This document shows, one piece after another, positions 8,024 through 23,811 of a stretch of DNA of 60,937 nucleotides. Made by a program: the position numbers and the translations under genes. Source of the stretch: Candidatus Dormiibacterota bacterium (GTDB lineage Bacteria > Chloroflexota > Dormibacteria > CF-121). The stretch lies in NCBI GenBank assembly GCA_036513655.1, contig DATBYO010000124.1:1-60937 (forward strand), in the 5' to 3' direction. The notes below the pieces were generated by a model, which saw nothing but the letters and a program-made list of their open reading frames with translations, searched no databases and was not told the DNA's origin. The stretch's first letter is position 1. Each line of letters starts with the position of its first letter.

Positions 8024-8215
8024 ATGAAGCCGGCGCTTTCCACAAGCGAGGCGGCGCGATGGCTCGGGATCAGTAAGTCGACCCTGATCCGCGCGGTGAA
8101 CCGGGGCGACATTCAGCCGGCGTTTCGCACCCCCGGCCGGCACCTGCGTTTCACGGTCGACGATCTCAACGCGATTCGGCGCCGGCTGCGAGGGCCGGCC
8201 GGGGAGGTCGCGTGA
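8024..8215 (+). CDS. Small excisionase/MerR-like helix-turn-helix (HTH_17-type) DNA-binding protein
   Basis: LSTSEAARWLGISKSTLIRAVNRGDI..GRHLRFTVDDL pattern; 63 aa; GTGA overlap with pilB. Confidence 0.7.
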   Translation: MKPALSTSEAARWLGISKSTLIRAVNRGDIQPAFRTPGRHLRFTVDDLNAIRRRLRGPAGEVA

Positions 8216-9939
8216 GCGCCGTCGAACCCGAGAGCACGGGAAAGCTCGCGACCCGCCAGCAGAAGCGGCTGGGAGAATTGCTCCTCGAGAACGGCCTCCT
8301 CACGCCGGAGCAGCTCGATCAGGCGCTGATGGAGCAGCAGCGGCAACACCTACCGCTCGGCCAGGTGCTTCTTGCCCAAGGGCTGGTCGACGAGGCCGCG
8401 CTGGCCGGAGTGCTGAGCCTGCATTTCAAGGTCCCGCAGATCGATTTTTCTCGCACCCGGGTGGAGAAGGAGGCGCTGGCGCTCATCCCCGAGTCGTACG
8501 CGCAGGAAAACACCATCCTTCCGATCCGCGTGCGAAACGACGAGCTCGAGGTGGCGACGGTCGACCCGGGGGACCTGGCCTTGCTGGCAGAACTGAAGGT
8601 GCTGACGCGCAAGCGGATCAAGCCGATCATTGCCGTGAGCTCGGAGATCAACAAGGCGATCCTCCAGTACTACAAACTGGAGGCGGGCGTCAGCCGCCAC
8701 GTGCGCTCGTTCGAGGAAACGTTCCAGCCGACCGGCGGCGGACGCCGTCTGGCGGAGGTCAAGCAGGACGCGCCGGTCGTCCAGATCGTGGACCTGATCG
8801 TGGCCCAGGGCGTCGAGGAGCGCGCCTCCGACATTCACATCGAGCCCCAGCAGGACCATCTCCGGGTTCGCTTCCGGATCGACGGGGTGCTGCACGACGC
8901 GACCAAACTCCCGGTCACCCTCGCCGCCCCGATCGCGTCGCGCCTCAAATTGCTCGCCAACCTCGACATCGTGGACAAGCGTCACAGTCAGGACGGCCAG
9001 ATCCAAACCACCGTCGAAGGACGTCCTCTGGACATTCGGGTGGGCACGATCGAGACCATCTGGGGTGAGAAGGTCGTCCTCCGGCTGCTGGAACGGTCCC
9101 GGTCGATCCTTCGGCTCGACACCCTCGGGTTCTCTCCAACCACGAGGGAGACCTTCATGGACTTGATCCGGTCCCCCTACGGAATGATCCTGGTCACGGG
9201 CCCCACCGGCAGCGGAAAGACGACCACCCTCTACGCCGCGCTCAACGAACTCGACAGCGTCGAGCAGAACGTCATGACCATCGAGGATCCCGTCGAGTAC
9301 ACGTTCGAGAACATCAACCAGATCCAGATCAATCGCCTGGCCGGCATTACCTTCGCCAATGGGCTTCGCTCCATCCTGCGGCAGGACCCGGACGCCATCC
9401 TGGTCGGCGAGATCCGCGACAAGGAGACCGCCGAGATCTCGGTGCAATCCGCCCTGACCGGACATCTCGTTCTTACCTCCCTGCACGCCACGGACGCGGT
9501 TGGGGCCATCTACCGCTTCCTGGAGATGGGCATCGAGCCCTTCATGGTCGCCTCCTCCGTGATCGGGGTGGAGGCGCAGCGACTCGTGCGTCGCATTTGC
9601 GAGAAGTGCGCGGTTGCCGACCGGCCGGCGCTCGAACAATTCGCGTTTTACGAGTCGATCGGCGGCAAGGGGTCGGTGTTCATGCGCGGCACCGGCTGTT
9701 CCCATTGTTCCCACACCGGCTTCCACGGCCGGATCGGGATCTTCGAGATCCTCAAGGTCAACGACGCGGTCAAGCAGCTGATCGTGCGCAATTCGCCGCC
9801 GGAGGCGCTGCGCAAACACGTGGTCGACAGCGGGATGACCACCCTGCGCGAGTCCGGCTTGGCGAAGATCGACGAGGGCCTGACGACGATCGGCGAGGTC
9901 ATGCGCTCGGTGCATGTTGGCGAGGTCATCAATGCCTAA
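8212..9939 (+). CDS. pilB: Type IV pilus assembly ATPase PilB/GspE with N-terminal MshEN-type domain
   Basis: Tandem RLGxxLLxxGLL..L..L..Q motifs at aa 19-71, Walker A GPTGSGKTT, ILVGEIRD, TSLHAT, and a tetra-Cys cluster (CEKC..CSHC). Confidence 0.9.
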   Translation: MSAVEPESTGKLATRQQKRLGELLLENGLLTPEQLDQALMEQQRQHLPLGQVLLAQGLVDEAALAGVLSLHFKVPQIDFSRTRVEKEALALIPESYAQENTILPIRVRNDELEVATVDPGDLALLAELKVLTRKRIKPIIAVSSEINKAILQYYKLEAGVSRHVRSFEETFQPTGGGRRLAEVKQDAPVVQIVDLIVAQGVEERASDIHIEPQQDHLRVRFRIDGVLHDATKLPVTLAAPIASRLKLLANLDIVDKRHSQDGQIQTTVEGRPLDIRVGTIETIWGEKVVLRLLERSRSILRLDTLGFSPTTRETFMDLIRSPYGMILVTGPTGSGKTTTLYAALNELDSVEQNVMTIEDPVEYTFENINQIQINRLAGITFANGLRSILRQDPDAILVGEIRDKETAEISVQSALTGHLVLTSLHATDAVGAIYRFLEMGIEPFMVASSVIGVEAQRLVRRICEKCAVADRPALEQFAFYESIGGKGSVFMRGTGCSHCSHTGFHGRIGIFEILKVNDAVKQLIVRNSPPEALRKHVVDSGMTTLRESGLAKIDEGLTTIGEVMRSVHVGEVINA

Positions 9940-12029: not shown

Positions 12030-12457
12030 TGGCTAATCGCCGGCGCCGGCAACGGGGACAGGCGCTGTTGGTGGTGCTCGTCTTCCTTGCCGCGTTCATG
12101 GTGCTCATCTGGGCATCGCTGCGGCTGGCCAGCGACGCGTTCCTCGGGTTGGGCGCCGTCCGGACCGATACTCACGTCACCTACGCGCTCGACGCCGGCG
12201 TTGCCTACGGTCTCGAGTACGCCCACCTGACCGGCACCAACTGCGTGGCGGTCAACCCCCCAAACTTCGCCGTCAACTATCCGCCGGCTACCACGGTCAC
12301 GGTCCGCATGACGATCCCGGCGGGTTGCAACGCCGGCAACCCGATGTACAACCTACGGGTGACGGCGACCGGCACCTCGCGAATCGTGCAGGCCCAGATC
12401 TATCAAAGCAACGTTGGCCCGAATCCCTGGCTTGTTCGGTGGGAGGCCTATCAATGA
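12029..12457 (+). CDS. PilX-like pilus assembly protein
   Basis: RGQALLVVLVFLAAFMVL N-terminal anchor without the G/F-E5 motif. ATG 12029 overlaps the previous stop (TGATG); the track start at GTG 12020 is also possible. Confidence 0.55.
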   Translation: MANRRRRQRGQALLVVLVFLAAFMVLIWASLRLASDAFLGLGAVRTDTHVTYALDAGVAYGLEYAHLTGTNCVAVNPPNFAVNYPPATTVTVRMTIPAGCNAGNPMYNLRVTATGTSRIVQAQIYQSNVGPNPWLVRWEAYQ

Positions 12458-12538
12458 ACTGGCGCGACTCCCTGGCTCGTTCGGTGGGAGGCCTATCAAT
12501 CAACTGGCGCGAGTCCCTGGCTGGTGCGGTGGGAGGCC
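12424..12538 (+). repeat. 45-bp tandem repeat, about 2.5 copies, spanning the pilX-like stop and pilM start
   Basis: Copies start at 12424, 12469 and 12514 (tccctggctNgtNcggtgggaggcctatcaatNaactggcgcgaN). Copy 1 carries GGGAGG-N7-ATGA; copy 2 has ATCA at the same place. Confidence 0.9.
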
Positions 12539-13455
12539 GACGGGGGAAGCCGGTCATCGCCATGGACCTCGGCGCGCGCGAGCTGAAGCTGGTTCAATTC
12601 GACGACGGCCGGCTGACGCGCCACACATCAGTGCCACTCTCGGAGGCTGGGTTCATCGATGGAATCCCCACGCCGGAGTTGGCCGCGGCGATCAGGCGCG
12701 CCGTGCAATCCGGAGGCTTCGCCGCTCAGACCGCACGGCTCGCCATCCCGGATAGCGGCGTGGCCGTGCGTGACTTTCCGCTGCCCGCTGTGCCGCGTAG
12801 CGAGCTCAGCCGCGCGGTGACCTTCGAGGGGCGCCGGCTGGTCCCGATGAGTGCCGGCGATGTCTACTACGGCTGGCACGCAACCAGGACCTCCTATGGC
12901 TACGGCGTCTACCTGGTAGCCGCCCGTCGCGACATGATCGACGCGATCACGACCATGGTCAGCGCGGCGGGGCTCCGCCTCGAGCGTGTGGACCTGAAGC
13001 CGCTGGCCCTCGCGCGTGGCGCGGGCGTCCGCGATGGCCTCGTGCTGGAGTGGAACGCGACTGAGGCCACCCTGGTCCTGATGGTCGCGAGCCGGCCCCG
13101 CTTCTTTCGCACGTTTGTGCTCGACGCGCCGGCAGATGACATCGACGCCCAGTTCGACGAGCTGGTGCTTTCGCTCAACGCGCTTGTCAAGTTCATGCGC
13201 AGCGCCGAGCCGGACGTGCCAATCGGTCCGGCTACGTCGCTAGCACTGGGCGGGCGCTTTGCCTTCATCGACCATGGCATCGAGCGCGCGCGCGACCGGT
13301 TCGAGTTTGCCGTCGTCCCTCCGATCCAGCAAGTCCCCTGCCCGCCTGACTTCCCCTGGCAGGCGCACCTTGCTGAATTGGGCCTGCTATCACCCCAGCG
13401 CTGGCACGCCCGCCTGACTCCGTCACAGGGAGGTGACAACCGTGTCGCAGCCTGA
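12454..13455 (+). CDS. pilM: Type IV pilus assembly protein PilM (actin-like ATPase fold)
   Basis: VIAMDLGARELKLV start of the conserved core. ATG 12454 has a GGGAGG SD 7 nt upstream and an ATGA overlap. Alternative start ATG 12562 (MDLGARELKLV) would leave the repeat untranslated. Confidence 0.75.
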   Translation: MNWRDSLARSVGGLSINWRESLAGAVGGRRGKPVIAMDLGARELKLVQFDDGRLTRHTSVPLSEAGFIDGIPTPELAAAIRRAVQSGGFAAQTARLAIPDSGVAVRDFPLPAVPRSELSRAVTFEGRRLVPMSAGDVYYGWHATRTSYGYGVYLVAARRDMIDAITTMVSAAGLRLERVDLKPLALARGAGVRDGLVLEWNATEATLVLMVASRPRFFRTFVLDAPADDIDAQFDELVLSLNALVKFMRSAEPDVPIGPATSLALGGRFAFIDHGIERARDRFEFAVVPPIQQVPCPPDFPWQAHLAELGLLSPQRWHARLTPSQGGDNRVAA

Positions 13456-13588
13456 TGACTCCGTCGCGATCGACTTCGCGCCCCCGCCGCCTGCCGGCCG
13501 CCGTCAGGTCCAGATTGCGGCGGCCGTCGTCGCCCTGGTGCTCATCGCCGGTCTTGTCGTTGGCGTGACGCAACTGCTACTCCGCTGA
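13442..13588 (+). CDS. 48-aa single-TM protein, possible minimal PilN-like stub
   Basis: Not in the track (below 60 aa). GTG 13442 overlaps the pilM end. Translation: MSQPDDSVAIDFAPPPPAGRRQVQIAAAVVALVLIAGLVVGVTQLLLR, a short cytoplasmic peptide plus one helix. Its position after pilM matches pilN. Confidence 0.4.
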   Translation: MSQPDDSVAIDFAPPPPAGRRQVQIAAAVVALVLIAGLVVGVTQLLLR

Positions 13589-13659
13589 GCGAACTTTTAC
13601 GGAGTCCGCAAGATTGCGGCCCTACGCTCGACCTGACTCAAAGGAGGTGTTCACAACTG

Positions 13660-14079
13660 ATGCTGTTCCAACTCATCCACAAGGCACGCAACCGTTCGCA
13701 GCGTAGCCAGGCTGGATTCACGCTCGTCGAGCTGCTCGTCGTCATTGCCATCCTCGGCATCCTGGCAGCGATCGTCCTCTTCAACATCTCCGGCGTAAAC
13801 GCCAGCGCGGCCTGCAACGCGATGCGCACCGACGGCGCCACCATCCAGGGCGCTGCCGACCTCTACTACAACAACCTGGCCGTCTATCCCGTGCTGCCCG
13901 CCGATAACGCCGCGCCTGCGAACGGCGCTGCCGTCAACGTCACCGAACTCCTGACCAGTAACTTGCTCCATCAGCGCCCCGCGGCCACCGAGACCTTCAC
14001 GTACATCACCGGTGCCAACTATGGCAACGGGACCGTCCACGGAGTCCTCGCCGGCGCCGCGTGCACCTACAACCCGTAA
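13660..14079 (+). CDS. pilA: Major type IV pilin (paralogue 1)
   Basis: QAG/FTLVELLVVIAILGILAAIV class III signal, an AGGAGG SD upstream, and a C-terminal Cys pair. Confidence 0.85.
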   Translation: MLFQLIHKARNRSQRSQAGFTLVELLVVIAILGILAAIVLFNISGVNASAACNAMRTDGATIQGAADLYYNNLAVYPVLPADNAAPANGAAVNVTELLTSNLLHQRPAATETFTYITGANYGNGTVHGVLAGAACTYNP

Positions 14080-14097
14080 AACCGACTTCCGGAATGG

Positions 14098-14132
14098 ATC
14101 GGCCGGCCTCGCAGCCGGCCGATTTCGTTTCT
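14098..14132 (+). terminator. Rho-independent terminator after pilA paralogue 1
   Basis: Stem atcggccggc (14098-14107) pairs with gccggccgat (14114-14123), 6-nt loop, followed by ttcgtttct. Confidence 0.7.
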
Positions 14133-14253
14133 GCCTCGGAAATGAGGTCCTCCCGGGCGTGCGCGATCGTCACGCGGCTGCGACGACGCTGAGCGAACTT
14201 TTACGGAGTCCGCAAGATTACAGCCCTACGCTCGACCTGACTCTCAGGAGACC

Positions 14254-14685
14254 ATGAAAGCCAACCTGCTCTCTAAGCGCCTCGCCGACGCCCGCCATCG
14301 CGCCCGCCGCGGCCAGGCCGGGTTCACGCTGGTCGAACTGCTGGTCGTCATCGCCATCCTCGGCATCCTGGCGGCGATCGTCCTGTTCAACATCTCGGGC
14401 GTGAACGCCAGCGCGGCGTGCAACGCCATGCGCACCGACGGCGCCACCGTCCAGGGGGCCGCCGACCTCTACTACAACAACCGTCTCCTCTATCCAGTAC
14501 TCCCAGCTGACGTGGCCGCCCCCGCGAACGGCGCCGCCGTCAACGTCACCGAGCTGCTGACCAGCAACTTGCTCCACCAGCGCCCGGCCGCCACCGAGAC
14601 CTTCACGTACATCACTGGTGCCAACTACGGCAACGGCACGGTCCACGGGGTCCTCGCCGGCGCGGCCTGTACCTACAACCCCTAG
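14254..14685 (+). CDS. pilA: Major type IV pilin (paralogue 2)
   Basis: The mature part is nearly identical to paralogue 1 but the leader peptide is unrelated (MKANLLSKRLADARHRARRGQAG/F). The same 5' leader is repeated 604 bp downstream of the first copy. Confidence 0.85.
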   Translation: MKANLLSKRLADARHRARRGQAGFTLVELLVVIAILGILAAIVLFNISGVNASAACNAMRTDGATVQGAADLYYNNRLLYPVLPADVAAPANGAAVNVTELLTSNLLHQRPAATETFTYITGANYGNGTVHGVLAGAACTYNP

Positions 14686-14975
14686 TCGCTATCGCTTCGT
14701 CGGCTCAATCTTCCGGCCTTGGTCTGGATCGCCGAGGAAGTAGAAGAGCAATGGGGAGCCGGGCGAGCCTTCCACGTAAAGTTGCGTCCCGTAGCTGCCC
14801 TCAAACCTTAGTTGAATCTGCTGGGGCCATCGTTCTTGACGAGTTGCCATCTCCCGCTTCCGCTGTTCCGGTCGATCACCTCAGAGCCGTGAAAGGCCCC
14901 GGGGAGGTCGGAGTCCGACCGATGCGAGGATCTGGAGCAGCAGCAGGGGTCGGATCGCGTGCCTGGTGATCGTAG

Positions 14976-15962
14976 CTAGGCGATCTTGGCCTCGTCGTCC
15001 TGAGTCCCGGCGATTCGCTGGGGGAGCGACGACGTGGCGAAGGCGGCGACCAACCGGGGGTCCCACTGCGAACCCGAGCCGGCCGCGAGGATCTCGAGGG
15101 TTTTGGCCACCGTGTGCTTGGGCCGGTAGGGGCGGTCCGTGATCATGGCATGGAAGGCGTCCGCCACTGAAACGATGCGCGCCATGATCGGGATGGCCGG
15201 CCCCTGCAATTTGTCGGGGTAGCCGGTCCCGTCCCAACGCTCGTGGTGGTGCCGGATAGCCGGCGCCAGCACCGTGGCCGGGCGAAAGGGCCCGGTGATC
15301 TCGGCGCCCAGGATCGTGTGCTGTTTGATCCGGTCGAACTCCTCCGGTGTCAGGGCGCCCTGTTTGTTGAGCAGCTCTTCCGGGAGGCTGATCTGGCCGA
15401 TGTCATGCAAGAGGCCGGCGTGGTAGGCGACTTCCTGGTCCTCGGCGTCGAGGCCGATGAGCCGAGCCAGGGCCTGCGCGGTCAGAGCCACGCGGTCATC
15501 GAAGGGCGCCTTCGACTCGGTCGGGTTCTCCCGCTTCACCAGCTGACGCAGGCTCTCATGCGTGCTGATCATGTCCTTGCGAAGTTCCTTGAGGCGGAGC
15601 AGCGCCCGGACGCGGACCTGGAGGTCGCGCAGCGTGATCGGCTTGACGATCAGGTCATCGCCACCGGCCTCCACCATCTTCGCCCGCTCCGGCCGGGGAT
15701 CGAATCCGGTCATCATCAACACCGGGATCTCGGCGGTCGCCGGGTCCGACTTCAATCGCTTACACGCCTCGTGGCCGTTCATCACCGGCATCTCGATATC
15801 CATCACGATGAGGTCGGGCTTGAGCCGGTTCGCGACGCGGACCGCTTCTTCGCCATTGCTGGCGGCTTCCGTCCAAAAACCGAGGTTGGAGAGCTGGCCG
15901 CAGAGCAGGTCGCGATTGGCACTGCTGTCGTCGGTGACGAGGATCGTGCGGCGCTCGGGCAT
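14976..15962 (-). CDS. Response regulator with HD-GYP output domain (RpfG-like)
   Basis: ORF 14976-16262 trimmed to ATG 15962 (MPERRTILVTDD). REC motifs (DLIVMDIEMP, KP), LLHDIGQ and HHHERWDGTGYPD. The usual first His of the HD-GYP fold (ETGxH) is not evident (FDDRVA). Confidence 0.8.
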   Translation of the reverse strand: MPERRTILVTDDSSANRDLLCGQLSNLGFWTEAASNGEEAVRVANRLKPDLIVMDIEMPVMNGHEACKRLKSDPATAEIPVLMMTGFDPRPERAKMVEAGGDDLIVKPITLRDLQVRVRALLRLKELRKDMISTHESLRQLVKRENPTESKAPFDDRVALTAQALARLIGLDAEDQEVAYHAGLLHDIGQISLPEELLNKQGALTPEEFDRIKQHTILGAEITGPFRPATVLAPAIRHHHERWDGTGYPDKLQGPAIPIMARIVSVADAFHAMITDRPYRPKHTVAKTLEILAAGSGSQWDPRLVAAFATSSLPQRIAGTQDDEAKIA

Positions 15963-16032
15963 CGGCCCGGAGGGGAGGGCTTCCACTGGCTGTAAGACGT
16001 AGGAAGTCGGACCTTCCTTCGTTGCACGGAAA

Positions 16033-18459
16033 GTGGAGCGTCGCATCACACTACCGGCGGCGCCGCTGACCATAAAACCGTCCAGCCTCCTCTCCGTCGA
16101 CGAGGTGGCGGCCGCCATCCACCGGCACCCCGAAGTCGTGCGACGGCAGGCGCGCGACGGCCGGCTGCCAGGAGAGAAGATCGGCCGGGTCTGGTTCTTT
16201 CGCCCGGAGCGGTTGGCCGAAGCCGGCTTCAGCCAGTTCCTTTCGCAGGTGGCCCGCGACAATACGGACGCCCCACCCGGCGAGCCGCAGGCGACGCCCC
16301 TGGTCAGGGTGCTCGGCGAGGCCGGCCTCCAGGCCCTCCAGCACCTGGATCGGTCCGCGATTTTCGAGGCGGTGGGGAGCCGGCTCGGGGAGGCCGGGCT
16401 GTCGACCTACCTTTTCGATCGAACGCCGGATGGGAAGGGGCTGACGGTCGCCTTCCGGCACGCGCTACACGCAGCGATCGAGATCTCGAAGCTCACCGGC
16501 CGCGAGGAGGTGGGCAACTTCATCCCCTTTGAGCGCATCCCCATCCTGCGCGAGGTGTGCTCCACCCTCCGGCCGCACTACGTCGGCAACCACGACGAGC
16601 TGGTCGGACGGGTCGCGATCGCGCTCACGCCGGAGGCCGCGGGCAACGCGCGGCGGGTGAGCGAGCTGCTGGAGCTGCACACCCTGATTTCGGCACCGCT
16701 GGTCGTCGGCGAGCGGGCCATCGGCGCCATCACCGTGATGGGCCCCGGACTGCGCGAGTCCGACCTGCCCGCCGTGATGGCGTTCGCCAACCAGACCGCG
16801 GCGGCGCTGGAAACGTCGCGGCTGCTCGAGGAGTCGCGGCAGACGGAAGAAGCGATGGTCCTGACGCTGGCCGGCGCCATCGAGCTGCGCGAGGCGCTCC
16901 ACAGCCGCGGCTACGAGCATGCCGAGCTCGCCGAGCGCTTCGCCGAACATCTCGGCTACGATCCGGGGCGGCGCCGGCGGGTGCGGTACGCGGCACTGCT
17001 GCAGGACCTGGGCAAGCTCACGCTCCCCGACACGATCTTGAAGAACCGCGGCCGGCTGGATTCGGAAGAGCGGGCCTTGATGATGACCCACCCGGTCGTC
17101 GCGGCGGATCTGCTGGGTCGCTTCAAGCCGCTTGCCGACCTGGCGCCGCTGGTCCGGTCCCACCACGAGTGGTTCAACGGCGAGGGGTATCCCGACGGCC
17201 TAAAGGCAGAGGCGATTCCGATCGAGACGCGGATCGTGTCCGTGATCAACGCATTCTTCAATGTCACCTTCGACCTGCCGGTCAAGACGCCAACGACCGT
17301 TGCCGAGGGCTTGCAGGAGCTGACGCGGTTCGCCGGCATCAACCTCGATCCGGGTTTGACCGAGGCCTTCGTGCTCATGTGCCGCCAAGCCGAGGCGGCC
17401 CGGAGCCCATGGTTCCAAACGCTGATCGAGGCGATGTTTGCCTCGCAGTCGAGTACCCGCCCGACTGCACCACGCGACATCCTCTCGGTGGCGGACTCGC
17501 GCGAGCTCCGCATCATCTATCGGATCGCACAGGAGACCACTGCCGTGCTCGACCTGGATACCCTGCTGACCCGCATCGTCACCATCATCCGTGAGGTGAT
17601 GGGGTACTACATGGTGTCGATCCTCTTGCCGGCGAACCAGGCGACCGAGTTGAGAGTCGGAGCTCATAGCGGCTACGCGGTCGACATCACCGGGCTCACC
17701 ATCCCGATCGCCCAGGGGATCACCGGCTGGGTGTATACGCACGGCGTTCCGCAAATCATCCCTGCGGTCCAGGCCGATCCACGATACATCGGGCTCGACG
17801 ATCAGGTTCACTCCGAGCTGGCGTTTCCGCTGATGAGCCGGGGCCGTGTGGTTGGCGTGCTCAATGCCGAGAGCCAGCAGGCCGATGCCTTCTCGGAGGC
17901 CGACGTCGCGCTCATGTCAGCGGTCGGATCCCAGCTGGCATCCTGCCTGGAGGTCGCGCAGCTGCACGACACGCTCAAGCGCGAGGCAAGCCATGATCCG
18001 CTGACCCGCCTCAACAACCGCCGGCATTTCCTCGAGCGGATCGAGCTGCAGATCATGCAGGCCACCAGCACCGGTGAGAGCTTCTCTCTCGTCTTCCTCG
18101 ACGTGGACGATCTGAAACGGATCAACGACACCTATGGGCACCTCGCGGGCGACGCACTGCTTCGCGAAGTGTCCAACGCGTTGATGGACGCGGTCCGTGG
18201 AGAGGATGTGGTCGCCCGCTACGGCGGTGACGAGTTCGTTGTCCTGCTGCCGACTACGGCGGCGGCGGCCGCGGCCAGTGTGGCGCAGCGCATCTCGGAT
18301 GGGATCGCGCGTCATCGCTTCATGGCCGGGCGCGAGCTGCTGCAGATCCCTGGGGTCAGCTTCGGCCTGGCGACCTTCCCGAAGGACGGCGCGACGGCGG
18401 AGGAACTCCTGGCGTCGGCGGACGCCACCCTGTACCAACACAAGCGCCGGGCAAGCTAG
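16033..18459 (+). CDS. HTH_17-like / GAF-like / degenerate HD-GYP / GAF / GGDEF multidomain protein
   Basis: N-terminal LLSVDEVAAAI..RDGRLPGEKIGRVWFF HTH; LLQDLGK (QD instead of HD, 17002-17007); HHEWFNGEGYP (17161-17193); VINAFFN; a second GAF (GITGWVY..AFPLMS); RGED-N5-GGDEF (18223-18237). Confidence 0.8.
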   Translation: MERRITLPAAPLTIKPSSLLSVDEVAAAIHRHPEVVRRQARDGRLPGEKIGRVWFFRPERLAEAGFSQFLSQVARDNTDAPPGEPQATPLVRVLGEAGLQALQHLDRSAIFEAVGSRLGEAGLSTYLFDRTPDGKGLTVAFRHALHAAIEISKLTGREEVGNFIPFERIPILREVCSTLRPHYVGNHDELVGRVAIALTPEAAGNARRVSELLELHTLISAPLVVGERAIGAITVMGPGLRESDLPAVMAFANQTAAALETSRLLEESRQTEEAMVLTLAGAIELREALHSRGYEHAELAERFAEHLGYDPGRRRRVRYAALLQDLGKLTLPDTILKNRGRLDSEERALMMTHPVVAADLLGRFKPLADLAPLVRSHHEWFNGEGYPDGLKAEAIPIETRIVSVINAFFNVTFDLPVKTPTTVAEGLQELTRFAGINLDPGLTEAFVLMCRQAEAARSPWFQTLIEAMFASQSSTRPTAPRDILSVADSRELRIIYRIAQETTAVLDLDTLLTRIVTIIREVMGYYMVSILLPANQATELRVGAHSGYAVDITGLTIPIAQGITGWVYTHGVPQIIPAVQADPRYIGLDDQVHSELAFPLMSRGRVVGVLNAESQQADAFSEADVALMSAVGSQLASCLEVAQLHDTLKREASHDPLTRLNNRRHFLERIELQIMQATSTGESFSLVFLDVDDLKRINDTYGHLAGDALLREVSNALMDAVRGEDVVARYGGDEFVVLLPTTAAAAAASVAQRISDGIARHRFMAGRELLQIPGVSFGLATFPKDGATAEELLASADATLYQHKRRAS

Positions 18460-18626
18460 CAGCGCAGGGCGCACGGCGCATTAGCAGTTAGCGAGGCCGC
18501 AGGCCGAGCCGCGCTTTCGCGCGTAAAGCGGCGGCGCCGTATGCCGCTCGCGCGAGCCCACGAGGACACGTTCTTAAGTCCGAGTGCGCCGCGAGAGGCT
18601 GGACGGCGCACCGGCGCGTGAAAGTT

Positions 18627-19670
18627 CTAGCCGAAGACCTGCTGGAGATCGTACAGCTCGCGCGGCACCCGGCGGGTTTCCGCAATCACATCGCGCAGCG
18701 GCACCACCGCGACCTGCCCGTCCCGCCGGATCGGGATCACCCCTGCCTTCCCATCGGCCAGCAAGTCGGTCGCCGAAACGCCCAGCCGGGTTGCCCAGAT
18801 GCGGTCGATCGGCGACGGCGAACCGCCGCGCTGCAGGTGGCCGAGCACGGTCACCCGCGTCTCGAATCCGGTCGCCTCCTCGATCCGGGTGCTGAGCGAA
18901 TCACCGACGCCTTGTTTGGCCAGCTGCACGTGGCCGAAGGCGTCCCGCTTCTCGGCGGCGGCCGTGGCGGCCATCGCCGGCTGGAGCGCGCGCATCTTCA
19001 CACCCTCGGCCACGACGATGATGCTGAAGTCCTTGCCTTCGCCGCGACGGCGGTGCAGATGCTCGACGACCGCGTCGAGCTCGGCCGGGAATTCCGGGAT
19101 GAGGATCATGTCCGCGCCGCCCGCGAGGCCGCCCACCATCGCGACCCAACCGGTGTCACGGCCCATCACCTCCACCACCATCACCCGATGGTGCGCTGAT
19201 GCGGTGGTGTGCAAGCGATCGAGGGCCTCGACGACCACCCCGACCGCGGTATCGAAGCCGATGCAGAACTCCGTAACCGAGAGGTCGTTGTCGATCGTCT
19301 TCGGGACGCCGACGACCGGATAGCCGGCGTCGCTCATGGCGGCCGCGACCGACAGCGTGTCGTCACCGCCGATCGCCACCAGACCCTGGACACCGCTGCC
19401 CTTCAGCAGGCTGATGACGTTCTCGACGCCGCCTTTCTCCTTGAGGGGATTGGTGCGAGAGGTACCCAGGATCGTGCCGCCAAGGGGAAGGATGCCGCGC
19501 ACGGATGTCGGCGTCAGATCTTCGAGATCGCCTTCGCCGAGCACGCCGGCCCAACCGTTCTTGATGCCGCTGACCTGGAACCCACGCTGGAAGGCGCGGC
19601 GCACCACCCCACGGATGGCGGCGTTGAGGCCAGGCGCGTCGCCACCGCCGGTGAGAACGCCGATTCGCAC
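18627..19670 (-). CDS. 6-phosphofructokinase, with residues typical of PPi-dependent enzymes
   Basis: GGGDAPGLNA, IGGDDT (Asp at the position of E. coli G104), GVPKTIDND (Lys at the position of G124), MGR. Confidence 0.85.
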   Translation of the reverse strand: MRIGVLTGGGDAPGLNAAIRGVVRRAFQRGFQVSGIKNGWAGVLGEGDLEDLTPTSVRGILPLGGTILGTSRTNPLKEKGGVENVISLLKGSGVQGLVAIGGDDTLSVAAAMSDAGYPVVGVPKTIDNDLSVTEFCIGFDTAVGVVVEALDRLHTTASAHHRVMVVEVMGRDTGWVAMVGGLAGGADMILIPEFPAELDAVVEHLHRRRGEGKDFSIIVVAEGVKMRALQPAMAATAAAEKRDAFGHVQLAKQGVGDSLSTRIEEATGFETRVTVLGHLQRGGSPSPIDRIWATRLGVSATDLLADGKAGVIPIRRDGQVAVVPLRDVIAETRRVPRELYDLQQVFG

Positions 19671-21014: not shown

Positions 21015-21135
21015 AGGTCAAGACTAGCCGTAACAGCTCAGTGACGAGGTGGGCTAGGGTGGCGCGCAAAGTTGATCTTGGCGAGCCGTTACTCGCGATG
21101 TGGGCGCGCCCTCAGCCGACGCCGGTCGGTCCTCG

Positions 21136-23811
21136 ATGCACAGCCTGCGCTGGTACATCAGCGTTGGCTTCCTGATGGTCGGGGTTGGCCCCTTGATCTT
21201 CTTCGGCGCGCAGCGAATCTCGGCGCTGTTTACGACCCAGAACAGCACCATCCAGCAAAAGCACGAACCGATGGCGGAGAGCCTGGCGCAGGGGGTTTAC
21301 GGCTACCTGCTGGATCAGACCTCAGCCTTGCAGAGCACGGCGTCCCAGATCGAGTCCGACAACGATTCCGGCATCCCCAAGCTCAACACCTCGACCTTCA
21401 ATCCAGCCCACATGAACCAGGAGCTGGCCGCCGCCCACTCCGCCCAACCGGCCCTCCTCCAGCTCTACGTCGGCAACCTGGCGGGACGGGCGATCGCCGC
21501 CGCACCCCCCGCCGGTGTGGGCGTCGACTACAGCGACTGGAACTACGTCAAGGACGTGCTCAACCCGCGCCGGATCGGGCCCAAGTACTCCGACGTGGTG
21601 CGGTCAAGTGGCGATGCCAGCGTGGCCGCCGTCGTCATCGCCGTGCCCATCCTGGACACGGGTCGCAACCTGGTGGGCTTTCTCGCCGGCACCGTGAACC
21701 TCTCCGAGGTGCAGCGGCTGTCCAACTACAGCCGGATCGGGGTCAACGGCCAGGCGGTCGTGGTCGACCGTCGCGGTCGCGTGATCGCGCATCCGCGTGA
21801 CGACTGGCGGACCGCAGCCAAGGATCTCTCCTCATCGGCGATCTTCCAGCAGTCGCTCGGGCAGGAGACCGGCGTGAGCTGGTACACGGACCCCGACGGG
21901 AACGTCCCCCGGGCCGCCGGCTTCGCCACGGTCCCGGTGGTCGGCTGGAAGGTTTGGGTCTCGCAGCCGGTCGCCGAGCTGCGATCGGAGCTGACCCCCT
22001 TGATCCTGAGCACGGTCGAGTGGCTGCTGGTGGCCATCGTGCTGGCGCTGGTGCTGGGCTTCCTCGCCGCCGCCTGGATCACCCGGCCGGTCGACGAGCT
22101 GAACCGGGCGGCCAGCCGGATCGCCCAGGGCGACTTCGTGACCCCGCTCAAGGTGCCGGAACGTTTCGCGGCCAAGGAACTGCGAGCGCTAGCCCGCACC
22201 TTCAACCAGATGGCGCACCAGCTCAGCGGTGCCTACCAGACCCTGGAAGAGAAGGTGTCGCAGCGGACCTCGGAGCTGCAGGCGGCCAACCAGGAGCTCG
22301 CCCGAGCCAACAAACTGAAATCGGAGTTCCTGGCTAACGTGTCGCACGAGCTGCGGACCCCGCTGTCGGCGATCATCGGCTTCTCCCAGATCCTGCTCGA
22401 TGGCATCGACGGGCCGGTCACCGAGGAACAGGAGCAGGACATCTCGCAGGTCAACAAGAGCGGCCAGTCCCTGCTCGCCCTGATCAACCAGATCCTCGAC
22501 CTCAGCAAGATCGAGGCCGGCAAGATGGAGCTGTCGCTCGAGCGGGTCGACCTGCCCAACCTGATCGGCTCGGTGCTCGACAGCATCAGCCCGCTGGCCC
22601 AGGAGAAGGGGCTGCAAATCGACACCCGGTTCGCGCTCGGGCTCCCCGCGGTCGAGGCCGATCCTGGGCGCCTCAAGCAGATTGTCATCAATCTGCTGTC
22701 CAACGCCGTCAAGTTCACCGAGCGCGGCCACATCGAGATCGTGGCCCAGCCGTCGGGCCGGATGGTGCGGATCGCGGTCAAAGACACCGGCATCGGCATC
22801 TCGGACGAGGCGCAGAAAGTCATCTTCGAAGAGTTCGTCCAGGGGGACGGAAGCAGTACCCGCCGGCACGGCGGCACCGGCCTCGGCCTCAGTATCGTGC
22901 GCAAGCTGGTGGAGATGCACGGTGGGGCCATCGCGGTCGTGAGCGAGCCCGGCGTGGGCAGCACGTTCACCTTTACCGTGCCGGCCTGGGCCTCCGGTCA
23001 AGCCGCGCTTGGCCCGGCTCAACGACGGCCGCTCCGCCGCCCCAATCAAGGTCTGCCGGGGGCCGCGATCCTGGTGGTCGACGACGACCCGAGCGTCCGG
23101 CAACTGATTGCTCGCCATCTCGAGCAGGAAGGCTGGAAGACGGTGCAAGCCTCGAACGCCGCCGACGCCTTGCAGCTCGCGCGCGAGGTCCGGCCGATGT
23201 TGATCACGCTCGACATCATGATGCCGGACGCCTCCGGGTGGTGGGTGCTGGAAAAATTGAAGGAAGACCCGCAAACCGCGGGAATCCCGGTGCTGGTGGT
23301 GACGATCGTCGAGGACCAGCGGCTGGTGTTCGCGCTGGGCGCCTCGGACTACCTCGGCAAGCCGTACGAGCGTGGTGCCCTGATCGCCAAGATCCACCGG
23401 CTCTTGCCCACGCTCGAGGGCAAGCGCGTCCTGGTCGTCGACGACGATCCTGAGGCGCGGACGATGCTCGGCAAGATCCTCAAAGAAGAGCGGGCCGAGG
23501 TGGTGGGCGCGGCCAGCGGGGATGAGGCGATGGCCATGATCGCGCAATCACCACCCGACCTCGTGCTGCTCGACCTGATGATGCCCGGGATGAGCGGCTT
23601 CGAGATGGTCGCGCGTTTGCGCGCCCAACCGGCGGTCGCCGGCATCCCGGTAATGATCGTCAGCGCCAAGGAGCTGACGGCGGAGGACGTGCTGACGCTG
23701 AATGGTCATATCCAGCGATTCGTCGCGAAGGGGTCGATCGAACCGGAGGGCTTGACCAACGCGGTTCGCCAGATGCTCGGTGACAATAAAACGCAAGGAG
23801 CCGCCGCATGA
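21136..23811 (+). CDS. Hybrid sensor histidine kinase (periplasmic Cache-like sensor, HAMP, HisKA, HATPase, two REC domains)
   Basis: H-box SHELRTPLSAIIGF, NAVKFT, DTGIGI, GGTGLGLSI; two receivers (ILVVDDDPS..TLDIMMP; VLVVDDDPE..LLDLMMP). ATG 21136 preferred over GTG 21100. Confidence 0.85.
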   Translation: MHSLRWYISVGFLMVGVGPLIFFGAQRISALFTTQNSTIQQKHEPMAESLAQGVYGYLLDQTSALQSTASQIESDNDSGIPKLNTSTFNPAHMNQELAAAHSAQPALLQLYVGNLAGRAIAAAPPAGVGVDYSDWNYVKDVLNPRRIGPKYSDVVRSSGDASVAAVVIAVPILDTGRNLVGFLAGTVNLSEVQRLSNYSRIGVNGQAVVVDRRGRVIAHPRDDWRTAAKDLSSSAIFQQSLGQETGVSWYTDPDGNVPRAAGFATVPVVGWKVWVSQPVAELRSELTPLILSTVEWLLVAIVLALVLGFLAAAWITRPVDELNRAASRIAQGDFVTPLKVPERFAAKELRALARTFNQMAHQLSGAYQTLEEKVSQRTSELQAANQELARANKLKSEFLANVSHELRTPLSAIIGFSQILLDGIDGPVTEEQEQDISQVNKSGQSLLALINQILDLSKIEAGKMELSLERVDLPNLIGSVLDSISPLAQEKGLQIDTRFALGLPAVEADPGRLKQIVINLLSNAVKFTERGHIEIVAQPSGRMVRIAVKDTGIGISDEAQKVIFEEFVQGDGSSTRRHGGTGLGLSIVRKLVEMHGGAIAVVSEPGVGSTFTFTVPAWASGQAALGPAQRRPLRRPNQGLPGAAILVVDDDPSVRQLIARHLEQEGWKTVQASNAADALQLAREVRPMLITLDIMMPDASGWWVLEKLKEDPQTAGIPVLVVTIVEDQRLVFALGASDYLGKPYERGALIAKIHRLLPTLEGKRVLVVDDDPEARTMLGKILKEERAEVVGAASGDEAMAMIAQSPPDLVLLDLMMPGMSGFEMVARLRAQPAVAGIPVMIVSAKELTAEDVLTLNGHIQRFVAKGSIEPEGLTNAVRQMLGDNKTQGAAA

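Follow-up and report, generated by a model that had tools for sequence, protein, structure and literature searches.

A probable diguanylate cyclase of Dormibacterota with a putative DNA-binding head and a degenerate HD-GYP domain, encoded beside a type IV pilus cluster

The gene studied here occupies positions 16033–18459 of contig DATBYO010000124.1 (assembly GCA_036513655.1, Candidatus Dormiibacterota bacterium), which was analysed as a window of 60,937 nucleotides with a G+C content of about 66%. It starts with GTG (ATG in the orthologue of locus L037) and its product combines a helix-turn-helix (HTH) domain, two GAF domains, an HD-GYP domain with several replaced signature residues and a GGDEF domain. 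We favour a model in which this protein is a DNA-binding diguanylate cyclase that carries an inactivated HD-GYP relay and autoregulates a gene pair located beside type IV pilus genes; taken as a whole, we consider that the model has about an even chance of being correct. A previous sequence-only reading had proposed the same open reading frame, motif positions and domain order. All the positions were located as given, and the order was recovered by Pfam, AlphaFold and Foldseek. The gene and its domains are the following:

16033–18459 (+): cyclase gene, GTG start, 808 aa, HTH_17-GAF-HD-GYP(degenerate)-GAF-GGDEF
16087–16239 (+): winged HTH of the excisionase/MerR-like HTH_17 type, aa 19–69 (Pfam, AlphaFold, Foldseek)
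16297–16752 (+): first GAF-like domain, divergent, aa 89–240 (marginal Pfam match, AlphaFold, match to PmGH)
16753–16908 (+): long stalk helix joining the first GAF domain to HD-GYP, aa 241–292 (AlphaFold)
16909–17442 (+): degenerate HD-GYP domain, aa 293–470 (Pfam, alignments)
17500–17967 (+): second GAF domain, aa 490–645 (Pfam, AlphaFold, Foldseek)
17986–18450 (+): GGDEF diguanylate cyclase domain, aa 652–806 (Pfam, NCBIfam, Foldseek, conserved motifs)

Pfam scanning of the whole protein identified HTH_17 at aa 19–63, HD_5 (PF13487) at aa 287–440 (102 bits, E = 3e-29), the second GAF domain at aa 506–640 (E = 7e-23) and GGDEF at aa 652–806 (E = 2e-44), while the first GAF domain was marginal (22.1 bits for a threshold of 22.4). 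The AlphaFold model, built on 60 orthologues and with a mean predicted local distance difference test (pLDDT) of 75, showed a winged HTH at aa 20–63, a GAF fold at aa 89–240 (pLDDT 80–93), a stalk helix of 47 residues at aa 242–288, an all-helical HD-GYP domain at aa 293–470 in which certain loops were of low confidence, the second GAF domain at aa 490–645 and GGDEF at aa 656–807. When this model was compared with the PDB using Foldseek, the GAF-HD-GYP unit resembled PmGH (4MCW) across 413 columns, and matches were also obtained with the GAF-GGDEF cyclase Dcsbis (4ZMU) and, at template modelling (TM) scores of about 0.8, with numerous isolated GGDEF domains. On the basis of these three analyses the protein can be described as an HTH head followed by a PmGH-like unit and then by a Dcsbis-like unit. 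The dimers of PmGH and of DvhD are held by the helix equivalent to the stalk (PMC4159591, PMC13090378).

Conservation was studied in two samples of orthologues, one of 60 proteins at 70–88% identity and the other of 36 species-level genomes reaching down to 54% identity. The GGDEF domain scored far above the thresholds of both PF00990 (151.7 bits against 23.8) and the NCBIfam model TIGR00254 (156 bits against 37.4). Its RGED I-site (18196–18207, R722-G-E-D725) is followed, after five residues, by the GGDEF A-site (18223–18237, residues 731–735), and both motifs are kept in 59–60 of the 60 family members, in agreement with the intact active site and RxxD I-site that had been read from the sequence. 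Residues D690, K695, N698, D707 and K804, which we take to be the equivalents of the Mg/GTP residues D327, K332, N335, D344 and K442 of PleD, are invariant in the 60 sequences, as is GGDEF itself. The equivalent of PleD R446 falls on the final residue, S808, adjoined by R805 and R806. Since RGED, GGDEF and the catalytic residues are invariant, the straightforward reading is that the domain is very likely an active cyclase subject to product inhibition through its RxxD I-site.

The HD-GYP domain gave a different picture. It was aligned to HD-GYP proteins of solved structure, of which 5Z7C, 4R8Z and 4MCW were matched by phmmer with E values from 5e-23 to 8e-18 (the latter for 4MCW), and the list of ligands and the mutagenesis data were those of PmGH, an active trinuclear-iron enzyme (PMC4159591). 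The three motifs concerned are LLQDLGK, with its QD at 17002–17007, HHEWFNGEGYP at 17161–17193 and INAFFN at 17245–17262. The equivalences with PmGH, and their conservation among the 60 family members, were:

H221 of PmGH (metal ligand): Q324, Gln in 58/60
D222 (metal ligand): D325, 60/60
K225 (catalytic): K328, 60/60
H250 (metal ligand): H353, 60/60
H276 and H277 (metal ligands): H377 and H378, 59/60 each
Y285 (GYP motif): Y386, 60/60
D305 (metal ligand): N406, Asn in 48 and Thr in 12 of 60
D308 (structural/catalytic): F409, 60/60
R314 (guanine contact): L415, Arg in 5/60
K317 (guanine contact): K418, Lys in 51/60

Both proteins thus share a GAF-stalk-HD-GYP unit in which D222, K225, H250, H276, H277 and Y285 have equivalents, and they differ in that H221, D305, D308 and R314 of PmGH are replaced and its E185 and H189 lack a conserved equivalent. 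The register of H189 is ambiguous by sequence: a gap-free register places R292 at this position, and the nearby His290 and His296 are not invariant, being lost from the most divergent orthologues. In consequence, the complete metal-ligand set of PmGH (H189, H221, D222, H250, H276, H277, D305) is not found in this domain. The sequence-only reading had described HD as changed to QD and ADxFDA as changed to INAFFN, and both replacements are real and held across the orthologues examined (N or T at 406 and F at 409 in 60/60). Its description of the domain as degenerate therefore stands as far as H221, D305 and D308 are concerned, but not all the ligands have gone, because D325, H353, H377 and H378 remain. 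It was also mistaken in counting HHEWFNGEGYP among the replaced signatures: HHE, including E379, and GYP (G385-Y386-P387, 60/60) are intact, and Asn at the Asp position of HHExxDG is usual in otherwise canonical relatives (D in 60, N in 25, G in 11 and A in 8). This D-to-N change is a trait of the subfamily and no sign of degeneracy.

As the substitutions are fixed across the orthologues, about 100 in all, they are not due to chance or decay. Mutations H221A, K225A and D308A practically abolish the activity of PmGH, and D305A strongly reduces it while leaving some, as also occurs with E185A (PMC4159591). Since Q324, N/T406 and F409 replace residues that are essential in PmGH, we infer that this HD-GYP domain no longer degrades cyclic di-GMP (c-di-GMP). 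An Asp-plus-three-His set constitutes one metal site in HD domains, and D325, H353, H377 and H378, all of them equivalents of PmGH ligands, are invariant; for this reason one metal site may survive. The proportion of invariant columns is 59% in the HTH, 40% in GGDEF, 37% in the second GAF domain, 31% in the stalk helix, 16% in HD-GYP and 10% in the first GAF domain. The HD-GYP domain diverges faster than GGDEF, the second GAF and the HTH, and this pattern would fit a domain that lacks catalysis and has nevertheless retained a role. The invariance of D325, K328, H353, HHE and GYP indicates that selection still acts on it.

The relatives of the protein indicate where these changes arose. A search among 1.84 billion cluster representatives yielded only one other cluster matching from residue 1 (P0121, 55% identity), while more than 100 clusters, defined at the 50% identity level, aligned with residues ~215/270–806 in one stretch at 30–38% identity. 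Among about 110 of these distant relatives, the position of H221 is His in 107, that of D305 is Asp or Glu in 104, that of D308 is Asp or Glu in 83 and that of R314 is Arg in 80. The HD-GYP-GAF-GGDEF architecture was already noted by Galperin and Chou (for instance as MASE9-HD-GYP-GAF-GGDEF). The relatives with one or more GAF domains before it have the same C-terminal three-domain module, many of them with HHEW[FY][NG]G.GYP, but they differ in their canonical HD, ADAFDA and DRPYR motifs and in their N-termini. None of those examined carries this HTH, and Q324, N406, F409 and L415 occur only in the Dormibacterota family. Because the relatives are canonical, the ancestor was presumably a canonical, bifunctional module whose HD-GYP domain became inactivated within this family. 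The family is restricted to Dormibacterota: all full-length relatives stem from soil metagenome-assembled genomes labelled Candidatus Dormibacterota, some with older Chloroflexi labels, and a few contigs are labelled Limnocylindrales, Acidoferrum or 'Actinomycetes'. All are annotated solely as "diguanylate cyclase", and nothing was found in the literature on HTH-GGDEF fusions or on c-di-GMP in Dormibacterota. In addition, a protein of 1978 aa (P0126) displays an N-terminus similar to MerR_1, below the threshold (19.6 bits against 21.6), followed by many GAF domains, a canonical HD-GYP, a GAF and a GGDEF domain; given this N-terminus, HTH-type heads may have joined the module more than once.

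No other domain of the protein is as conserved as the HTH. In the orthologue alignments the segment RHPEVVRRQARDGRLP.EKIGRVWFF is essentially invariant and the recognition helix RHPEVVRRQAR is invariant, and most orthologues have a precomputed PF12728 match. The Pfam score of the N-terminal segment for HTH_17 sits at the threshold, at 27.4 bits for a gathering score of 27 when aa 1–286 were scanned alone and at 26.5 bits in the whole protein. Residues 1–90, modelled alone with AlphaFold, adopted a winged-helix fold (pLDDT 83–87) consisting of a short strand, two helices (22–28 and 33–42), a two-strand wing (47–50 and 53–56) and a helix. The top Foldseek matches of this model were structures of BldC on DNA (probability 1.0, TM up to 0.75, root-mean-square deviation 1.7–3.4 Å, 24–31% identity), followed by RacA and the MerR-family protein NmlR, both on DNA, and the 50 top matches were, without exception, HTH or winged-helix DNA binders. 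This evidence supports as credible the DNA-binding N-terminus that the sequence-only reading had proposed. BldC of Streptomyces (6AMA/6AMK), the best structural match, belongs to the same Pfam HTH_17 or MerR-like group, but it is a small stand-alone protein, whereas here the HTH is tethered to a large signalling enzyme by a variable linker of about 20 aa. BldC binds direct repeats as head-to-tail multimers. A search with aa 16–86 for other proteins bearing this HTH retrieved only short fragments of the same gene.

Upstream of the gene, the 70-bp divergent intergenic region (15963–16032) is almost invariant across about 36 species and contains a bipartite element:

15993–16026 (no strand assigned): near-invariant bipartite element GACGTAGGA-N9-TTCCTTCGTTG(CA), with conserved surroundings at 15963–16056 (alignments)

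The conserved blocks are, in order, TCCAC, TA[A/C]GACGTAGGA, a variable spacer and TTCCTTCGTTGCA, after which come a variable Shine-Dalgarno-like stretch and the start codon with eight conserved codons. In most species these first eight codons (16033–16056) read GTG AAG CGT CGC GTC ACA CAA CC and are conserved also at third positions, even though ACA, CAA and CGT are rare for a genome of 66% G+C, which suggests that the nucleotide-level constraint extends from the upstream element into the coding region. The blocks of the element form an imperfect inverted repeat, ACGtAGGAA / TTCCTtCGT; alternatively, they can be parsed as direct repeats of CGTWGSA set 22 bp from each other. The element begins 38 nt upstream of the start codon, at a fixed offset, with one copy per locus, and it is invariant in the ~36 species, down to 54% protein identity. 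Of 103 exact matches in metagenomes, 100 lie between a REC-HD-GYP gene and an HTH-bearing gene, all with the 9-nt spacer, and the other three are unrelated chance matches in low-GC sequences. Within the 61-kb window, the motif halves had no further copies apart from chance-level matches with three mismatches, and no copy of the element was present upstream of the pilin genes.

A known RNA family was discarded, as no Rfam match was obtained at E values up to 1 in 13400–18700 nor at the gathering score in the whole window. RNAalifold predicted a hairpin of 11 pairs, all invariant and with 0 compensatory changes; the element shows no covariation because its sequence never varies, so this result neither supports nor refutes an RNA structure. 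Several species of the alignment disrupt a second hairpin, which spans the start codon, and no sigma-70 consensus was detected in 15700–16300. A search for transcript data that might place the start site retrieved soil DNA metagenomes and no RNA runs. The element is a candidate operator, promoter or leader element. Since an invariant recognition helix adjoins an invariant, locus-specific DNA element, the data suggest that the HTH may bind it and thereby autoregulate the gene pair.

The HTH and the element are also found apart from the cyclase. In one Dormibacterota metagenome-assembled genome, at L042 (2619–3473) and also at L043, the same slot is occupied by a 284-aa HTH_17-HD-GYP protein (P0245) that has neither GAF nor GGDEF domains, in which HD and DRPYR are intact and the positions of D305 and D308 are His and Val, respectively; the element is retained ahead of it. 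This is a natural deletion variant that separates the HTH plus the element from the cyclase. The possibility that short HTH-HD-GYP proteins form a separate family was rejected, as P0304 is a truncated or frameshifted copy of the long gene and P0245 a genuine deletion variant at the same locus.

On the other side of the element lies the second gene of the pair:

14976–15962 (−): divergent gene of an RpfG-type REC-HD-GYP protein, 328 aa (Pfam REC and HD_5)

The divergent RpfG-like neighbour described by the sequence-only reading is in place, 70 bp away, and it is present in the 36 species-level loci (36/36) at 78–91% identity. D11, D12, D55, HD, H215, HHE and D268 are invariant in this protein, and GYP and all the metal ligands are kept. 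It has, however, Q190 at the position of K225 (HDIGQ, 35/35) and H271 at that of D308 (ADAFHAM, 35/36), two positions at which mutation inactivates PmGH (PMC4159591). In view of these two residues its activity should not be assumed, and it may not be a standard phosphodiesterase. The two HD-GYP domains of the locus deviate in a complementary manner: the cyclase keeps K225 and lacks H221, D305 and D308, whereas the neighbour has its metal ligands intact and K225 and D308 replaced.

Wherever that side of the locus was examined, the gene pair had a type IV pilus cluster next to it. In the window this cluster, located upstream, comprises a PilT-like ATPase, a 63-aa HTH_17 protein, PilB, PilC, minor pilins, PilM and two pilin paralogues, and the genes of the latter (13660–14079 and 14254–14685) agree with the earlier placement of the cyclase gene after the pilin genes. 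One member of the cluster has a known c-di-GMP motif:

8212–9939 (+): PilB extension ATPase with an N-terminal MshEN c-di-GMP motif, aa 19–71 (motif of PMC5013675)

The first 24-residue MshEN motif of PilB is perfect (RLGELLLENGLLTPEQLDQALMEQ) and is followed by a 5-residue spacer and a second motif. Judged by this sequence, PilB is a likely local receptor for the product of the cyclase.

Different roles can be imagined for an HD-GYP domain in this state. In DvhD of Desulfovibrio vulgaris (9RBZ/9RC0) a degenerate HD-GYP domain, with SQ for HD and MN for HH, binds c-di-GMP metal-free and without hydrolysis through L577, K582, Y621, M646, R650, Y652, E668 and Y523, and the R650A and Y652A/R653A mutants show a weaker c-di-GMP-dependent stabilisation (PMC13090378). 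The domain studied here could likewise be a non-hydrolytic receptor whose sensing of the messenger exerts feedback on both the cyclase and DNA binding, much as the c-di-GMP-sensing role proposed by the sequence-only reading. Like DvhD, the protein would have an HD-GYP domain without hydrolytic capacity as a signalling module; both share NAF at the D305 position, and L577, K582, Y621 and M646 of DvhD align with L323, K328, Y386 and V411. Nevertheless, R650, which equals the guanine-contacting R314 of PmGH, aligns with L415, and Y652 with the variable residue 417 (V/T/H/I/F); the sensor reading loses strength and becomes doubtful, since the Arg and the Tyr with which PmGH and DvhD touch c-di-GMP are gone. 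DvhD, moreover, lost HD and HH, while the Dormibacterota protein keeps D, H and HH, which would imply a different type of site, and DvhD is a membrane LapD analogue, neither a cyclase nor a DNA binder. Finally, the protein already has a canonical feedback site in its RxxD I-site. With these residues lost and the His cluster kept, a receptor is possible and not favoured, and we regard it as unlikely. Possible alternatives to it are a residual single-metal or ligand site and, by analogy with RpfG-GGDEF and HnoD-HnoB, contacts through the GYP loop or the dimer. That the protein is still a bifunctional enzyme, with weak phosphodiesterase activity or hydrolysis of pGpG and with Gln324 and Asn406 as neutral metal ligands, seems to us very improbable. 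The invariance of D325, H353, H377, H378, K328 and Y386, the presumably bifunctional canonical relatives and the activity left in the E185A and D305A mutants of PmGH would agree with it, but H221A and D308A abolish activity in that enzyme (PMC4159591), the substrate-contacting Arg is gone and HD-GYP evolves faster than the catalytic GGDEF.

The contacts just mentioned could also be the whole function of the domain, that is, a protein-interaction pseudoenzyme within a trigger-type complex, either as an HD-GYP heterodimer with the REC-HD-GYP protein or with its GYP loop docked on GGDEF, in which case phosphorylation of the partner REC would switch cyclase activity or DNA binding. The strict co-conservation of the gene pair in 36/36 loci, the invariant GYP loop and the complementary deviations of both domains speak for such a complex, and there are precedents. 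According to the account given in PMC4159591, the GYP motif of Xanthomonas RpfG binds GGDEF proteins, as the HD-GYP::GGDEF contact, and governs pilus motility. HnoD, an inactive HD-GYP protein, acts as an inhibitor of a phosphodiesterase partner. In E. coli, PdeR, DgcM and MlrA bring together a phosphodiesterase-type domain, a cyclase and a MerR-type DNA-binding factor at one promoter (PMC5052742). The Xanthomonas RpfG-GGDEF-PilZ system also resembles this locus in linking a REC-HD-GYP and a GGDEF protein to the type IV pilus, to judge from that account, but no PilZ protein was identified at the Dormibacterota locus, where the receptor candidate is the MshEN domain of PilB. However, divergent pairs can be co-conserved through shared regulation alone, and a pure scaffold would leave the invariant Asp/His cluster unexplained, so that this explanation appears to us no better placed than the receptor. 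Less probable still is a trigger switch complete in one polypeptide, where a mononuclear metal or ligand sensor (D325, H353, H377, H378), into which the bi- or trinuclear HD-GYP hydrolase would have been converted, perhaps with the complementary REC-HD-GYP protein, would toggle the protein between a repressor of the c-di-GMP gene pair, bound to DNA at a dedicated, absolutely conserved operator, and an active cyclase feeding MshEN-PilB. The cyclase would then itself be a transcription factor. A further objection concerns the head of the protein, since the HTH-like domain might be a module for protein interaction or folding, and the element merely a promoter, ribosome-binding or leader sequence. 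The fixed offset and the conservation into the first 8 codons fit a signal for the initiation of transcription or translation, and the element has no additional genomic copies. But conservation is higher in the HTH than anywhere else in the protein, the top structural matches of this domain are all winged helices that bind DNA, in several cases with structures determined on DNA, and the element has neither a sigma-70 consensus nor an Rfam match; we therefore hold this objection to be improbable, about to the same degree as the receptor.

Several data weigh against the favoured model of a DNA-binding cyclase. The Pfam score of HTH_17 is borderline (26.5–27.4 bits against 27), and the Foldseek E values of the 90-aa model are weak (0.011 at best and none ≤0.001). 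From centre to centre the half-sites of the element lie 17 bp apart, a spacing that a rigid symmetric dimer would not readily fit, and the element could serve as a promoter or in translation initiation without any relation to the HTH. Residual hydrolysis by the HD-GYP domain is formally still conceivable, as Gln and Asn can coordinate metals. The second MshEN motif of PilB (PLGQVLLAQGLVDEAALAGVLSLH) is near-consensus only, with P for R and H for Q. Finally, synteny is generally conserved across these closely related genomes, so that linkage to the pilus genes says little about function.

According to the favoured model, the protein would be a cytoplasmic, probably dimeric diguanylate cyclase whose C-terminal GAF-GGDEF unit, judging by its invariant motifs, makes c-di-GMP under product inhibition through the I-site. 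The GAF-HD-GYP part would be a PmGH-like phosphodiesterase module that lost the residues for hydrolysis in this lineage only and in which the GYP loop, Lys328 and, from one metal site, the cluster of four Asp/His residues remain. It would now act as a regulatory and dimerising relay setting the geometry of the two GGDEF domains and of the two HTH heads, possibly via the residual metal or ligand site or via contacts of the GYP loop with GGDEF or with the REC-HD-GYP neighbour. The BldC/MerR-like winged HTH would bind DNA, with the bipartite element before its own gene as the likeliest target, and the protein would in this way autoregulate a gene pair for making and breaking c-di-GMP. From the genomic context, the likely output would be c-di-GMP control of pilus assembly.

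The ingredients of this model are known: the HD-GYP-GAF-GGDEF module, inactivated HD-GYP domains, HTH-fused c-di-GMP enzymes such as PdeL and modules of the PdeR-DgcM-MlrA kind. PdeL of E. coli, an HTH-EAL trigger phosphodiesterase, is likewise a c-di-GMP enzyme that is itself a transcription factor (PMC5052742). The E. coli systems differ from the present one in that they consist of separate proteins or, for PdeL, of a fusion to EAL, whereas here a single polypeptide carries HD-GYP. No precedent was found in the literature for the joining of these parts in one polypeptide, for this pattern of inactivation, for so strict a pairing with a divergent RpfG-type gene or for a dedicated invariant element. 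If the model were true, nature would here offer a clear case of one protein that is both a diguanylate cyclase and a DNA-binding regulator, a combination already seen in the EAL enzyme PdeL and, in trans, in DgcM-MlrA. The protein would also illustrate a second evolutionary route for an HD-GYP domain that became inactivated, one metal site being kept and the nucleotide-contacting Arg and Tyr lost, the opposite of DvhD. Moreover, a small cis element together with an invariant recognition helix would offer the first concrete handle on how c-di-GMP controls type IV pili in Dormibacterota, an uncultured phylum of soil bacteria. If the model were false, the locus would be that of a well-annotated, ordinary multidomain GGDEF protein.

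Other features were observed in the neighbourhood. The 63-aa stand-alone HTH_17 protein of the pilus cluster (8024–8215, +, 46 bits) overlaps pilB by 4 nt, is kept at this position in the related loci L001–L003 and might regulate the pilus operon as a BldC-like protein; paralogy between it and the HTH of the cyclase was discarded, as they have no detectable sequence similarity. The tandem pilin genes (both +) are 88% identical, being near-identical from the N-methylation motif onward, and since only one pilin is present here in the related loci L001 and L003, the tandem duplication is recent. A 45-nt tandem repeat (12415–12538, 2.8 copies, 91% match) is located between a minor-pilin ORF and the PilM-like domain and, in the long PilM ORF as called, is translated into a 15-aa peptide that recurs; it may lie upstream of the true PilM start, because the PilM proteins of the relatives are shorter (279–303 aa). 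Downstream of the cyclase gene, a dCache-HAMP-HisKA-HATPase-REC-REC hybrid histidine kinase is encoded at 21100–23811 (+) and conserved in related loci, where in L001–L003 it is followed by a single-domain REC gene. The hybrid kinase and the REC gene are candidate phospho-donors or partners for the REC-HD-GYP protein.

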